A DNA stretch of 64,000 bases from Leptospiraceae bacterium (lineage in GTDB: Bacteria > Spirochaetota > Leptospiria > Leptospirales > Leptonemataceae): NCBI GenBank assembly GCA_040217195.1, contig JAVJNR010000003.1, forward strand, positions 320,001 to 384,000. Direction: 5' to 3'. Below the pieces are notes generated by a model. The model saw only the letters and a list, made by a program, of their open reading frames with translations, did no database searches and was not told the origin of the DNA. The position numbers were made by a program, and so were the translations under genes. Shown in pieces: positions 15,161-22,761 of the stretch (positions are counted from its first letter, which is position 1; every line of letters starts with the position of its first letter).

Positions 15161-15514
15161 CTAGAACTTCTGATATAGATAGTTCGGATCAACACTGATC
15201 ACTCTCGGAGATGACTCCAGAGCAGCCTTTATGGCTTCCAGGCCGGGATCAGGGTCGAACATCAGTTTATAGTGATTGGAGCTAGCCGAAACCAGCTTGA
15301 TTTCCTTTAGCGGAAGGTCTGCCAGTTCATTTTCCAGCAAGGATTGAGCTCCCTCCGAATCCATTTTCTCAAGCTTGACTATATACTCACCGGGTACCCG
15401 ACGAGGCGGCATTTCTTTGCCGCCCGGTCCTGGTTCTGACATTGGTTTATCCGGAGATGCTCCCATACAGAAAGGTAATAGGAACATCCCCGCAATTATC
15501 AACCGTTTCGTCAT
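15161..15514 (-). CDS. Stand-alone subtilase propeptide-like (I9/fervidolysin pro-domain-like) exported protein
   Basis: Signal peptide with possible lipobox LLPFC; VPGEYIVK...SPRVISVDPNYLYQKF parallels the adjacent protease's pro-domain VPGEVIVK...DPMVEYAEPNYLYQKF. Confidence 0.75.
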   Translation of the reverse strand: MTKRLIIAGMFLLPFCMGASPDKPMSEPGPGGKEMPPRRVPGEYIVKLEKMDSEGAQSLLENELADLPLKEIKLVSASSNHYKLMFDPDPGLEAIKAALESSPRVISVDPNYLYQKF

Positions 15515-17520
15515 TGTAGAGTTGCCGTTACTCCCGTAACCTGATCCAGATCCCGCATGGAGTTATCTGCATTTATAGACACTCCATACTTGGTATTGGC
15601 CGCAATATCCGTGGCCGCTTCGCCACCATCGATGATCTTCTGGATGGTATCCGCAGCATCATAGTCCGGATTATAGGCCCGCAAGAGAGCTGCCAGACCA
15701 GCTACATGAGGTGCAGCCATGGAAGTTCCGTCCAGATAGGAATAGGCGGTGTTACTGGGTTCCCAGGTCGTAACCACCATGTCTGCCACAATCGCTCCGG
15801 GCCGATTAGCTGTAACATCGCTGAAAATCTGGTATCCAACGGTGCAATTGGTGCTACCCAGACAATTCTCCAGAAAGTGGTTCCCGGAAGCCACAAACCT
15901 GGTTCCACCATCTTCGCAGAAATAGGTCGTATATTGCCCCCTATTGAAATCCGGCAATTGGAGAAACGTCCCCGAACCCACCGGATCCCCCGTAGAGGAG
16001 GAATATGCTGCCCGGGTATAATCGTAGCAGTAGGGAGAAGATGGCCTATCTTCGCCATATGCCACGATGGTATGTCGCAGACCTATATGCGTTGCACTGG
16101 AGCTAACGGAGAAGTTTCGGTAGATGCGTCGATCTGCACTGGAGGGCATAACCGTCACTGTGGAAGTTTCGCCTACCAGGAATTCCCAGAAAGAACAATC
16201 GGGGACCGTAAGCATATCCAGCGCATTGGCACCTGTACCACATTCATCGGAGATCCAATCAGCAGCCGGGCCTGTTCCGGCAGTCAGCCAGCTGGAGTAG
16301 ACGGTACTACCGGAAAGCTCCGTTTCTATACCATAGGCGCTCATGATGTTGGTTCCCGGGGCACCCAGGTCCACCGCCCGCAGAGACTGACTGGATGTAT
16401 CAAAGTTTGAGAAACTGGCTCGATCGAAATCCTGGTCCAGGGCAGCCACACAGAGGATGTTGCTATTCGTTAGCTCGCAAGGATACACATTGTTGGATGC
16501 CAGATCCTGATTCGAATTTCCAGCAGCAATGATTACTACCACATCGTTGGATTCTGCATAATCAATGGCATCCTCCATAAGAGAACTGGTGGAACCACCG
16601 CCCAGGCTAAGGTTAATCACCTTGGCACCGTTGCGCACTGCGAATTCGATCCCCTGCGCAATATCGTCCAGAGCGGCACCCTCATGACCAATAACTCGAA
16701 CTGCCATGATATCTGCGGTCTGGCAAACTCCGGAGATGCCTTTGTTATTGTTACCCACCGCGCCTATTGTAGCAGCCACATGGGTTCCATGCCCTTCTTC
16801 GTCCGCTGGATCGTTATCATCGTCCACGTAGTCCCATCCGTGGTTAGGACAGCCACCGGAGACGGTAGTACCATTTTCATCCACGCAACCCGTACCATCC
16901 CACATGTTGGCCGAAAGGTCTTCGTGGGAATAGTTAACGCCGGTGTCGATCACAGCTACTGTAGTGGCACTACAATCTGTAGTCACATCCCAGGCATTGA
17001 GAATATCAATGTCCTTTCCGGATGTTCCCGGATTGTTACTGGTGTAGGATGGACTGCTGAGGGTCTGCCCGGTGTTTTCGAGGCCCCATAGATTTCCCCA
17101 CTGTGTGTCGTTGGGTGCGGGAGCAAACTTCTGGTAGAGGTAGTTTGGCTCTGCATATTCCACCATGGGATCACGGTTTAACCGGGCCACTGCCTGCTCT
17201 ACAGTTTCACCTGTGAGAATTCGGGCCTTCCTTGCCTTTAGTCGCGGCATGCGAATAGAGGTCTGTAATCCCAGCCCGGTGGTTCTTGCAGTTTGAGCAT
17301 GCTCACTGAGGCCGGGCTTGTATTTCACAATCACCTCACCGGGAACATACTCTTGCCTCTGAAATACCTTTTTATAGGGCTCATTGAATGGCTTATAAAC
17401 CGGTTCTTCTGCGTTTGGTCCGGCAAGAAGTGTACTGGTAAGCAAACCTGCCACAACGAGCCCGAGGGCAGCACCTAGCTGCCTGGTTCTGAAAACATTG
17501 TTCATTTTCTTATCTTTCAT
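15511..17520 (-). CDS. S8 family serine peptidase (subtilase) with internal insertion
   Basis: AGGAGG RBS; signal peptide; triad motifs VAVIDTG, HGTHVA, GTSMAAPHVAG; oxyanion AAGNS. Confidence 0.95.
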   Translation of the reverse strand: MKDKKMNNVFRTRQLGAALGLVVAGLLTSTLLAGPNAEEPVYKPFNEPYKKVFQRQEYVPGEVIVKYKPGLSEHAQTARTTGLGLQTSIRMPRLKARKARILTGETVEQAVARLNRDPMVEYAEPNYLYQKFAPAPNDTQWGNLWGLENTGQTLSSPSYTSNNPGTSGKDIDILNAWDVTTDCSATTVAVIDTGVNYSHEDLSANMWDGTGCVDENGTTVSGGCPNHGWDYVDDDNDPADEEGHGTHVAATIGAVGNNNKGISGVCQTADIMAVRVIGHEGAALDDIAQGIEFAVRNGAKVINLSLGGGSTSSLMEDAIDYAESNDVVVIIAAGNSNQDLASNNVYPCELTNSNILCVAALDQDFDRASFSNFDTSSQSLRAVDLGAPGTNIMSAYGIETELSGSTVYSSWLTAGTGPAADWISDECGTGANALDMLTVPDCSFWEFLVGETSTVTVMPSSADRRIYRNFSVSSSATHIGLRHTIVAYGEDRPSSPYCYDYTRAAYSSSTGDPVGSGTFLQLPDFNRGQYTTYFCEDGGTRFVASGNHFLENCLGSTNCTVGYQIFSDVTANRPGAIVADMVVTTWEPSNTAYSYLDGTSMAAPHVAGLAALLRAYNPDYDAADTIQKIIDGGEAATDIAANTKYGVSINADNSMRDLDQVTGVTATLQ

Positions 17521-17531
17521 GATTTCGCCTC

Positions 17532-19043
17532 CTACTGTGGCACTGCCACTGATTGTTGAGAGGATGGAGGACCTCCATCGGTGTTGAATCCGGCGAAGGC
17601 ATAAACCTTAATATACCATGTGCCATGGTAATTCACCGTAATCACTTTTGATGTGGCAGTATCTCCGGATCCTGGCCAGGAAACTAGATCGCAAAATATA
17701 GTTGATCCATCCACGTCTGCAGGATCGAATCCGGAGGTCTGGCTATAGCATACGGCATATCCGCCGCCTGTATCGCTCACTCCTTGCTCTTTCGCTGCAT
17801 CCCATTCTACCAGTATATCTTTTCCAGAATGACCGGTTCCGCTCAAATTCAGGGACACAGAAGAAGCAGAACCATCGTCGCCATCGGCACTCTCTATATC
17901 CAGAGTGGCCGATTTAGAACCGATTGTGTCTGGTTCAAAGGTAACATTGAAGCTAATGGATCCGCCAGGAGCGATGCTGGTTCCAGTAAGTGCAGTGCGC
18001 ACAAATTGGGAAGCGTCGCCTCCACCGATGGATACGTCCAGTCCGGTTAGAGTCTCTGTTCCAATATTTCTGACAATAATGGTTTTGGAGGAGCTCACAT
18101 CGTCGGGCCAAACCGTTCCGAAAGTTGGAATGGATCCACCGCTGGTGTAGTCCACGCTATTGTGCTCGATTTGAATCATAGGCTGAGGCTCCGGCGTGGA
18201 AGTCCCTACCAGATCCAGCTCAAACGCAGGATAATCCGGATCGTTCGTTTCGATTGTCAGCGTTGCCGTTTTGGAACCGTCCACCGTTGGCTCGAAAGTT
18301 ATCGTAAAGGTTCTGGAATTTCCGGGAGTCAGATTCGCATTGGATGGCTGACCGATGGTAAATTCCGTATGATTGGTGCCCGCTTTTGAAATTGCAGGAC
18401 TGTTGGTAAAAGTCAGATTCTGACTTCCGGTGTTTGTTATAGTAAATGTACGGGCCGAACCACTCTGGTTTTCCTGTACACTACCCATGTTCAGCTCCGC
18501 ATTATGCGAGTAAGTAGTTGATCCTTCAGTGATAGCCATCCTTGGCGCAGCCCCGGATCCTTCACCTGTAAGGTCTAACTCATAGGTTGGTGTTCCATTA
18601 TCGTTACTATCGATGGTAATGGTGGCCGTGCGAGTACCATTCGCTCCCGGAACGAACGTTATGGTGAAGCTGGTAGAGCCCCCTCCCGATATTGTCGTTG
18701 CGGATGGCTGAGCGATTGTATAGTCAGAGGCATTGGAGCCTGTTTTGTCTACAATCGGTGTGCCCGTTAGCTCCAGGGACTCATCTCCGTCATTGTGGAT
18801 TGTTATGGTGTAAGTTTTTCCACTGCTGGCGTTGGTAATTTCAGAACCAAAATCCAGAGTGTTGCCGCTTCCGTAATCACTTCCCTCGTAGGACACCCGC
18901 ATAGATGGGGCCTGCCGCACTGGCGGCTCTCCACCTAAAAACAGGAAAGCCAGGCCATTGTTTCCCCCGCCACTGGGCGGGCAATGCAGTGCAAAAAGGG
19001 ACACTGCGACTACGGAAAGTAGTCTTCCGTATTTGAGTATCAT
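17532..19043 (-). CDS. Surface lipoprotein with three ASH/choice-of-anchor-D-like Ig domains and a C-terminal FN3-like domain
   Basis: Lipobox-like FALHC; three repeats of TI.N.G...L...F.I.F.P...G.K.AT..I.SND...L.G.G; C-terminal ILVEW...GYAVCYS...WYIKVYA. Confidence 0.8.
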   Translation of the reverse strand: MILKYGRLLSVVAVSLFALHCPPSGGGNNGLAFLFLGGEPPVRQAPSMRVSYEGSDYGSGNTLDFGSEITNASSGKTYTITIHNDGDESLELTGTPIVDKTGSNASDYTIAQPSATTISGGGSTSFTITFVPGANGTRTATITIDSNDNGTPTYELDLTGEGSGAAPRMAITEGSTTYSHNAELNMGSVQENQSGSARTFTITNTGSQNLTFTNSPAISKAGTNHTEFTIGQPSNANLTPGNSRTFTITFEPTVDGSKTATLTIETNDPDYPAFELDLVGTSTPEPQPMIQIEHNSVDYTSGGSIPTFGTVWPDDVSSSKTIIVRNIGTETLTGLDVSIGGGDASQFVRTALTGTSIAPGGSISFNVTFEPDTIGSKSATLDIESADGDDGSASSVSLNLSGTGHSGKDILVEWDAAKEQGVSDTGGGYAVCYSQTSGFDPADVDGSTIFCDLVSWPGSGDTATSKVITVNYHGTWYIKVYAFAGFNTDGGPPSSQQSVAVPQ

Positions 19044-21612: not shown

Positions 21613-22761
21613 CTATTCTGGGAGGCTGATCCTCCGCTGAATTTTCTGAATGTCCAGCGGAATTTTTTGAAAATTTCGATCTGCAGGTAATTCGTCGATT
21701 TTTTGTTGAATAAACTCAATACGTTCGTCGGTGGCAGGATGAGTTCCCATGATGGCCATTGCACTTTGCTCAGTATCCGACATTTGTTCTTCCTGAATCT
21801 CCTGGATTCTTCTAAAGAAAGTTAGCATTCCTCGGGGATCGATACCCGCTTTTACCAGAAGTTCGAAGCCGGTTTCATCCGCCTGGCGTTCAAAGTCCCG
21901 GCTGAATTTTTGAGAAAGCAAGAACCCTCCCTGATCGGCCAGTGCAGCGATCAATCCCTGGGTATCTCCAAACACGGCTCCTACCAGCACATACAGTCCA
22001 ATTCGACGAACCATCAGCTGAGTGCCATGCCGATGAATTACGTGGGCCATTTCATGAGCCAGAACTCCTGCCACTTCCTCGGCGGAGTCCGCTTTTTCCA
22101 ATAAAGCAGAATGAATGAAGATGGATCCGCCAGGTAAGGCAAATGCATTCACATCTTGATGATGAACCACTTGAAATTTGAATGGAAAAGGCGAATCGGC
22201 CACCTTCAGGAGTGGCCCGGTCATGGTTTCAATACCTTCGTTCACTACCGGATCTTTGACTACCGACATGGTGCTCATCATGTTTTCTTCCACCAGTTCA
22301 CCCAGTTTAACTTCCGCGTCCGGTGGAATCTGATCAATGGCAGCCTGAAAAAGAAGTCCACGGCCCACCCAGGCAGCCGCCACCAGGCCCAGTGTAACAA
22401 GTGCCAGGGTCCAGTAGCCACTTTTCACTCTGCGATGCCGACCTACGATCTTCTTGATAGCCGGTTCCAGTTCAGGTTTCTGCAAAGCCCTCTCTTTAAG
22501 AATCGCTCTGTCCGTAGTGTACACAGATATGCTGGCACGAACGGGACTTTTGAAATAGATCAATCGGTTTTGATTTCCACCGGCGGTGATTTCCAGTTTT
22601 TCCAGTGGCAGCTGTATAGGATTTTCCGAGGAATTGGGCCTGAACTCAAGGGTTCCTTCCATGACTCGAAGCATGCCGGCCACCCGGCTACCGTCCTCCA
22701 GAAATGCTGCTCCTTCATAAGTTGCTGAGACTTCGCCTGCACGAGCTGTAAGATCTTCCAT
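21613..22761 (-). CDS. M48 family zinc metallopeptidase with N-terminal beta domain and one TM
   Basis: VNAFALPGG, VLAHEMAHV, FSRDFERQAD, THP..ER. Confidence 0.93.
   Translation of the reverse strand: MEDLTARAGEVSATYEGAAFLEDGSRVAGMLRVMEGTLEFRPNSSENPIQLPLEKLEITAGGNQNRLIYFKSPVRASISVYTTDRAILKERALQKPELEPAIKKIVGRHRRVKSGYWTLALVTLGLVAAAWVGRGLLFQAAIDQIPPDAEVKLGELVEENMMSTMSVVKDPVVNEGIETMTGPLLKVADSPFPFKFQVVHHQDVNAFALPGGSIFIHSALLEKADSAEEVAGVLAHEMAHVIHRHGTQLMVRRIGLYVLVGAVFGDTQGLIAALADQGGFLLSQKFSRDFERQADETGFELLVKAGIDPRGMLTFFRRIQEIQEEQMSDTEQSAMAIMGTHPATDERIEFIQQKIDELPADRNFQKIPLDIQKIQRRISLPE

Follow-up and report, generated by a model that had tools for sequence, protein, structure and literature searches.

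How can a secreted protease that cuts off its own N-terminus stay on the cell? Such an enzyme needs another means of attachment, and two adjacent genes in the window (the whole 64,000-nt stretch of Leptospiraceae DNA analysed here) suggest one. The first encodes a putative lipoprotein ending in an FN3 domain, which we call the socket; the second encodes an S8 subtilase (Table 1). We find it quite likely that the two form a two-gene plug-and-socket anchor, in which the tail of the protease completes the FN3 domain of the upstream lipoprotein and tethers the enzyme. The elements of this reading, namely the missing strand, the tail, the gene linkage, the lipobox exclusion and the predicted interface, were seen in the sequence or obtained by computation.

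Table 1. Coordinates of the anchor locus within the window
Feature	Position	Strand	Description
Socket (anchor) lipoprotein gene	17532..19043	-	503 aa; lipoprotein signal Cys21, three ASH domains, C-terminal FN3
Stalk, three ASH / choice-of-anchor D domains	17832..18908	-	approximately residues 46-404
FN3 domain without strand A	17535..17831	-	residues 405-503; strands B, C, C', E, F, G
11-nt gap with AGGAGG (Shine-Dalgarno-like)	17521..17531	-	AGGAGG overlaps the socket gene's stop codon
S8 subtilase gene	15511..17520	-	669 aa; signal peptide, prodomain, catalytic domain, donor tail
Insertion within catalytic domain, ~190 aa	15751..16329	-	residues 398-590
Donor tail of protease	15514..15549	-	residues 658-669, LDQVTGVTATLQ; modelled as FN3 strand A
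Free-standing prodomain copy, probable lipoprotein, 117 aa	15161..15514	-	accessory

The upstream protein appears to be a lipoprotein: it has a lipobox-like FALHC at residue 21, and this Cys column is conserved at 90% or more, as a motif only, among 107 aligned socket rows. Its stalk matches NCBIfam NF012200 (157.7 bits, cut-off 45), and the Pfam Cep192_D4 match within the stalk reaches residue 404, at profile position 111 of 112. HSGKDILVEW starts at residue 405, and the socket domain then runs to the stop. Folding from the single sequence gave a pLDDT of 46.6, and an alignment-based fold was used instead; in that model, the last 99 residues form strands B-G of an FN3 domain (pLDDT 90.7). FN3s give the best structural matches, in alignments that begin at strand B and reach Z up to 9.7 (for 1fna residues 14-96, Z 8.7, rmsd 2.8, 80 aligned). 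The topology of the FN3 beta-sandwich and its Trp/Tyr core are present, the full set of seven strands A-G in one chain is absent, and the model has the open groove of an incomplete Ig-like fold. The earlier note had described this domain as lacking strand A, and this stands, as both the model and the structural alignments start at strand B and the domain modelled alone is not complete. Its count of five strands, B-C-E-F-G, has to be revised to six, B-C-C'-E-F-G.

Profile matches in the wider family are consistent with a missing first strand. Pfam fn3 matches 39 of the 107 socket family members, the window's own copy not among them. In a scan of 32 proteins, 11 of 12 socket-domain matches to fn3 begin at profile position 9-16, and two complete FN3s used for comparison begin at position 2-3. 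The twelfth match (P0020) begins at position 4, and this socket may carry part of strand A in cis. Could strand A come in cis more generally, from lipoprotein residues upstream of strand B? P0020 and the long upstream regions of some members speak for this, but in the window the residues in question form the final strand of the third ASH domain, covered by the Pfam match to 404. Moreover, upstream segments are unrelated among members and are often Gly/Ser runs, and the shortest members leave just 11-12 residues between the lipobox Cys and the strand-B Trp (16 or fewer in 14 of 156). We therefore consider a cis strand A extremely improbable.

The 107 aligned socket relatives, of up to 180 aa, share the motif W-x-A-N-R-E-x-A-V-N-x-x-G-G-G-Y, and most consist of a signal peptide, a linker and the domain. 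In many relatives, the ASH stalk is missing or swapped for other Ig-like domains. Judging from these architectures, the Ig stalk is optional and many sockets would be just a lipid anchor plus the domain. Thus, the Ig stalk named in the earlier proposal is not essential; the completion of the FN3 domain by the protease tail is supported in silico. Identification of the socket with NCBIfam invert_tail (NF058595) was rejected as spurious: 10 of the 107 relatives match weakly relative to the cut-off of 37 bits, the match that was inspected (20.7 bits) spans the signal peptide and a Gly linker, and there is none in the window's own genome.

The downstream gene encodes an S8 subtilase. It matches Peptidase_S8 with 174.4 bits (Pfam cut-off 21.8), and the Asp/His/Ser triad and oxyanion Asn (D192, H244, N335, S600) are invariant across 54 aligned protease rows. 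The protein has a signal peptide without a lipobox and a fervidolysin-type prodomain at residues 54-132. As the earlier note had stated, the gene lies 11 nt downstream of the socket gene and its product ends in a strand-A-like tail, DLDQVTGVTATLQ, directly before the stop codon. The family consensus of this tail, Y-I-x-x-P-T-G-V-T-A, resembles FN3 strand A. A complete FN3 following a family protease was not found, at least among the candidates listed, including one comparison spanning 1172-3345 aa; these are weak tests. For the insertion within the catalytic domain (398-590), the best Atlas scores are 0.78 or lower, which gives a lead only.

AGGAGG in the gap between the two genes overlaps the stop codon of the socket gene. 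Translational coupling seems plausible from this layout, and the spacing, the one indication of co-transcription, suggests that the genes share a transcript. A promoter/terminator scan of the locus did no better than shuffled sequence (6 vs 5.5 and 3 vs 4.4). Fusion of the two products by stop read-through is out, as the 11-nt gap shifts the frame and the protease is made with a signal peptide of its own. A third gene, absent from the earlier note, shares an ATGA overlap with the protease stop. Its 117-aa product ends in PNYLYQKF, as does the protease's prodomain, and is probably a cognate inhibitor or chaperone of the protease.

The pairing extends well beyond this locus. Across 190 genomes of the class, the protease lies directly downstream in 75 of 76 socket matches, the exception being at a contig end; the linkage counts in these genomes are 75/76 and 75/83. 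The same arrangement is seen in 40 of 50 metagenome loci, with no downstream DNA in the other 10. Conservation on this scale indicates that the pair is linked beyond chance. A tail-like segment is present in all 65 partnered proteases and terminal in 64, and 63 of the 65 end 68-71 residues past the catalytic Ser motif (69 in the window). In one of them, L079 (979 aa), the strand is degenerate and an extension of 360 aa comes after it; another sequence (L104) has no tail, but its gene is broken by several frameshifts. Conversely, the tail is absent from 17 of 18 partnerless proteases, and the lone carrier sits at a contig edge. Hence, tail and truncated FN3 co-occur in homologs in both directions.

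Of the partnerless relatives without a tail, the ten closest bring a lipobox-like Cys of their own. Among the 65 partnered proteases, a lipobox was flagged in two and by eye neither is one; these calls were made by eye with a heuristic that combines hydrophobicity and a Cys, in place of a trained predictor. On these calls, a protease-borne lipobox and socket/tail pairing are mutually exclusive. Since maturation would remove such a lipobox along with the prodomain that bears it, the argument that it is an alternative anchor is indirect. One caveat to the co-occurrence is that relatives are non-independent, and few events may underlie the pattern: a quick tree requires 3 label changes, only 1 of which is forced by strongly supported branches.

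In the predicted complex, the tail occupies the strand-A position of the socket and forms a beta-strand there. With this, all three outcomes that the earlier note had named as refuting its reading were checked in silico, and none came out against it. Socket plus protease scores an ipSAE of 0.80, vs 0.01 for the best of 3 controls; of 157 solved complexes 116 attain the mark used, as do 2 of 215 mismatches, and these counts are only rough with the alignments used here. Runs share 98% of contacts, and partner pLDDT is at least 91. In the model, the tail pairs antiparallel to strand B (G663-D415, V664-W414, T665-E413, A666-V412, T667-L411), with a second contact patch at 178-179 and 616-624. Because the complex is in effect a split FN3, it may reach this mark through likeness to solved FN3s.

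It is also conceivable that socket and tail are remnants of a gene that was split or permuted and that they no longer interact, with the socket stable by itself or as a homodimer and serving another role. The six-stranded model is confident without the tail, and one protein sequence (P0172) is a natural in-frame fusion of socket, prodomain, protease and tail. High pLDDT, however, is no proof of stability; tail length and strand pattern are kept among proteases down to 32% identity; the tail goes missing where the socket gene is missing; and the interface residues of the model coincide with conserved motifs. We give this explanation little credence.

Tethering by the tail is the reading we prefer, and it would proceed as follows. 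The lipoprotein would be exported and lipidated, presenting an FN3 domain with an empty strand-A groove. The subtilase would be exported by its ordinary signal peptide and then cut off its own prodomain, so that nothing at the N-terminus could hold it. Its last ~10 residues would take the place of strand A, running antiparallel to strand B, and complete the fold, and the end of the catalytic domain would also rest on the conserved BC loop of the socket. The active protease would then be bound stably but non-covalently to a lipid anchor, with the optional Ig-like spacers setting the distance. As to the membrane face, the outer surface is our guess.

The same sequence and model evidence is compatible with transient binding, in which the lipoprotein serves as an adaptor for folding, piloting or secretion and passes the protease on, for instance to an outer-membrane secretion machine, with the enzyme set free in the end. 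A precedent of sorts is the dentilisin lipoprotein PrcB, needed for PrtP expression according to PMC8167434. Against this, genomes with 2-3 paralogous operons still have one socket gene per protease gene, which fits a stoichiometric partner; long Ig spacers ahead of the socket fit display; and no sortase-like third enzyme is seen among the neighbouring ORFs listed. Transient binding is in our view unlikely, though less so than the relic or cis-strand explanations.

At 50% identity, the socket family falls into at least 150 clusters, whose annotation is hypothetical or choice-of-anchor D protein. Its members occur in many Leptospira species and among proteins labelled Oligoflexia, Bdellovibrionia, Bacteriovoracia, Burkholderiales and Gammaproteobacteria. 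In a phylum-level sample, 7 of 401 genomes match; one matches strongly and carries the full module at a locus in another phylum (L160), and the other six are weak matches to other FN3 types, with the family protease absent from the stretch examined. The evidence is about evenly balanced on whether there is a general bacterial tag-and-catcher route, with a ~10-residue C-terminal FN3 strand A as a portable address and strand-A-less FN3 lipoproteins as sockets; the locus here would be a dedicated protease-display module whose spacers are swapped freely and which alternates with direct lipidation. If the anchor is real, it adds a compact surface-anchoring mechanism to sortases, T9SS and direct lipidation, and assigns a role to the socket family. 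It might also yield a natural, genetically encodable tag/catcher pair for protein display, with small binding partners (a 99-aa domain and a 12-mer peptide).

Several known systems are comparable. In deseasin MCP-01 and further S8 subtilases, Ig-like or FN3 domains stand at the C-terminus of the same chain. Deseasin MCP-01 is the best solved relative of the catalytic domain of the window's protease (3vv3, E 9e-80); the window's protease, in contrast, has just one FN3 strand and the catalytic insertion. In the pili of the chaperone-usher and Bacteroidia type V classes, another polypeptide donates the one strand that an Ig-like sandwich is missing, and chaperone-usher pilins carry both the groove and an N-terminal donor extension. 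The window's system differs from pili in its FN3 fold, its missing strand A, its donor (the C-terminus of an enzyme) and its 1:1 tether in place of a polymer. Groove and donor belong to two separate proteins, neither of them a pilin, and no chaperone or usher gene was noticed among the neighbouring ORFs.

Dentilisin (PrcB-PrcA-PrtP) of Treponema denticola is likewise encoded by an operon of a spirochaete, in which lipoprotein genes precede the subtilase gene. As described in PMC8167434, activation frees the acylated N-terminal part, and contacts of PrcB/PrcA with PrtP are proposed to retain the enzyme at the surface; PrtP itself is acylated, with a C-terminal domain of ~250 aa, whereas the window's protease has no lipobox. 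The latter scores 69.8 bits against denti_PrtP (cut-off 300), outside dentilisin PrtP, and profile searches gave no dentilisin family (PrcA/PrcB) among the NCBIfam matches of stalk or socket.

The closest precedent is provided by the gingipains Kgp and RgpA of Porphyromonas gingivalis. In these proteins, ABM1 and ABM2 together probably form an FN3-like fold. As proposed for the window's protease, a short motif directly behind the catalytic region keeps these secreted proteases at the surface without a covalent bond. Deletion of ABM1 releases Kgp (PMC3677877, PMC10319874), and the partner of ABM1 "may be" ABM2 (PMC10319874); passages of PMC5266723 mention ABM1/ABM2 and not an FN3 fold. To our eye, the ABM1 sequence in PMC3677877 reads like FN3 strands A and B. 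The earlier note knew of no description of this arrangement, and our literature searches, mostly outside subscription journals, found no paper on this socket/protease pair; a related logic is known from ABM1/ABM2. Pfam and NCBIfam find only S8 and ASH domains here, and none of the parts of a gingipain-type C25 polyprotein (ABM motifs, adhesin domains, T9SS CTD). Gingipains are cysteine proteases, cut from one polyprotein and exported by the T9SS; in the window, by contrast, protease and lipoprotein anchor are encoded by separate genes, and the protease is an S8 serine enzyme that would donate a single strand.

Here, we present the geometry, gene linkage, exclusion pattern and predicted fit shown by a two-gene module that is real and conserved, and which very probably serves as a naturally occurring split-FN3 tether that holds a secreted subtilase. 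In the window, the module belongs to a closely packed set of three minus-strand genes, each present once in the genome, and the nearest named relatives (Leptonemataceae and Spirochaetaceae MAGs) carry the same set. The subtilase, whose nearest solved enzyme is deseasin MCP-01, has a prodomain and an intact catalytic triad and ends in DLDQVTGVTATLQ. The anchor lipoprotein contains three ASH/choice-of-anchor D domains, the third matched up to residue 404; its final 99 residues, termed here the socket, have no Pfam or NCBIfam match.

Features of the locus and its surroundings
Feature	Position	Strand	Remarks
Anchor lipoprotein, 503 aa	17532-19043	-	ORF
Subtilase, 669 aa	15511-17520	-	ORF, 11 nt past lipoprotein gene
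117-aa ORF (third gene)	15161-15514	-	start overlaps protease stop
Cys-rich insertion, ~190 aa	15751-16329	-	in subtilase catalytic domain; no family match
Three similar tandem genes, 221-227 aa	19531-21609	-	first is AIM24
Probable metalloprotease gene context	21613-22761		past AIM24-type trio; synteny preserved in loci L001-L003

Modelled with 107 aligned relatives, the 99-residue socket folds into six long strands (pLDDT 90.7). FN3 domains top the structural matches, and the entire model covers their portion from strand B onward; in fibronectin FN10 it aligns with residues 14-96, residues 6-13 being strand A. The earlier note had proposed a strand-A-less FN3 domain in the stalk and an 11-bp gap to the subtilase gene; the six-strand model and the alignments beginning at strand B bear out the first, and the ORF map reproduces the second. 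Pfam fn3 matches 39 of the 107 family members. When 32 proteins were scanned singly, it matched 12 socket domains, starting at profile position 9-16 in 11 and at 4 in database protein P0020; by contrast, two complete FN3s start at 2-3. The family comprises 150 representatives at 50% identity, most of them consisting of the domain preceded by a lipoprotein signal and a Gly/Ser linker, with unrelated Ig-like spacers in other members. A Cys follows a hydrophobic stretch in 156 of 179 short motif-bearing proteins. The Cys-to-Trp distance is at most 16 residues in 14 short sockets and 11-12 in the shortest; such sockets leave no space for a strand. That the two pieces are a relic, or that strand A is filled in cis, seems very unlikely.

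A search of 190 genomes from the class gave 76 socket matches (E below 1e-10), spread over 66 genomes. The family protease lies directly downstream on the same strand in 75, and the remaining match is at a contig end; conversely, a socket gene lies upstream of 75 of the 83 family proteases (E below 1e-100), counts that leave out three weak socket matches and 16 weaker protease matches. Most of genomes G084-G147 match in these searches, and none is listed for G061-G083 (family f2), many of which have incomplete bases, so that absence is not implied. In 50 metagenome loci retrieved with the socket motif alone, the protease adjoins the socket in 40, and the other 10 have at most 419 nt of downstream DNA. 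One genome of another phylum (L160) also has the full module. Loci L059 and L067 each hold a tandem pair of complete operons with differing tails, and genomes G131 and G141 have three operons each, providing natural material for specificity tests.

An alignment of protease ends covered 83 distinct complete sequences from the collected loci. Excluded were ORFs with an open end, a sequence containing N bases, proteins shorter than 400 aa or with no recognisable catalytic motif, and short loci L013-L042. The Ser motif lies 68-71 residues from the C-terminus in 63 of the 65 proteases adjoining a socket gene (partnered), and 81 residues in another, because of an internal insertion. These 64 all carry a tail of the pattern P/V-x-x-hydrophobic-x-hydrophobic, with YIxxPTGVTA as consensus, which is how strand A of an FN3 domain typically reads; 55 of the 65 satisfy a strict regular expression. 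The last, L079, has a degenerate strand at the tail position and then 360 more residues; this 979-aa minus-strand protease has a repeat-like extension. The tail is absent from 17 of the 18 proteases lacking a socket gene (partnerless); the sole exception, L138, has its upstream DNA off the contig. A partnered, tail-bearing protease at L096:2299-4287, among those left out, has no canonical GTSMA motif by the pattern used, and is possibly a variant or inactive member.

Lipobox-like Cys, called heuristically, occurs in the ten closest partnerless short-ended relatives (L004, L006, L009, L133-L137, L139, L140) and is lacking in 63 of 65 partnered proteases, the two flagged ones not being lipobox-like by eye. 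Anchoring in this family thus seems to go either through a lipid on the protease itself or through tail plus socket. The tail, socket and lipobox counts are not independent, the proteins being related: a quick tree built from 80 catalytic cores, with 4 skipped, requires three label changes, with five partnerless proteins inside partnered clades at moderate support, and is compatible with a single change.

The third gene encodes a stand-alone version of the prodomain (29% identity, E 9e-9; last eight residues identical). Found after 20 of 44 partnered proteases and adjoining three partnerless ones, it probably encodes a cognate inhibitor, outside the tether. A single database sequence, P0172, is an in-frame fusion in the order socket, prodomain, protease, tail; it could be a sequencing artefact.

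The mature protease (135-669) and socket, modelled together with a 54-row alignment each, scored 0.80, versus 0.01 for the best of three controls. Among solved complexes, 116 of 157 attain the mark applied, as do 2 of 215 mismatched pairs, figures that are only roughly valid here. Contact agreement between runs was at least 98%, and partner pLDDT at least 91. In the model, the closest contacts place tail residues 663-667 antiparallel on strand B (415-411), in strand A's place in FN3, and V661 packs against W414, V480, A482 and S494. Protease residues 178-179 and 616-624 form a second predicted patch with the socket, and part of the conserved BC loop (417-422) lies within the modelled interface; the tail is predicted to dock even with the protease's own 190-aa insertion present. 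Since split-domain halves tend to score well through likeness to solved structures, the model speaks to fit rather than binding. The earlier note had asked, as checks, whether the tail docks as a beta-strand and whether it is kept only beside a truncated-FN3 gene; the predicted antiparallel docking agrees with the former, and comparison of the 65 partnered with the 18 socket-less proteases revealed the co-occurrence.

By analogy with subtilase and lipoprotein biology, both proteins would be exported, the prodomain would be cleaved off after YQKF (132), and the enzyme, once mature, would remain attached via its last strand. Stable tethering of the protease by its tail in the socket is likely; that the lipoprotein is a transient adaptor for the protease is improbable. 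As to the role of the tethered protease, nutrient proteolysis at the envelope is a guess.

FN3 domains in some other loci also start at strand B. A 117-aa secreted protein in a polysaccharide locus (L153:1450-1803, same as L166:1893-2246) has a signal peptide, strands B-G and, right after strand G, a strand-A-like C-terminal tail; because this tail is at the wrong pole for closing its own domain, its subunits could be linked head to tail. In L161, L162, L163 and L165, more distant domains likewise have strand B as their first strand, preceded by a signal peptide or linker, and the DNA stretch examined at each shows no family subtilase; they are possibly sockets for other cargo.

We found no description of the socket-lipoprotein/subtilase pair in the literature covered, most subscription journals lying outside it. 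The pair works like donor-strand complementation, yet it is not a pilus. In function it comes closest to the gingipain motif ABM1 of Porphyromonas gingivalis, whose deletion frees Kgp from its complex at the surface (PMC3677877, PMC10319874). Gingipain parts derive from one polyprotein, whereas the pair in the window comes from two genes. Dentilisin (PMC8167434) is a spirochaete parallel built of different parts.
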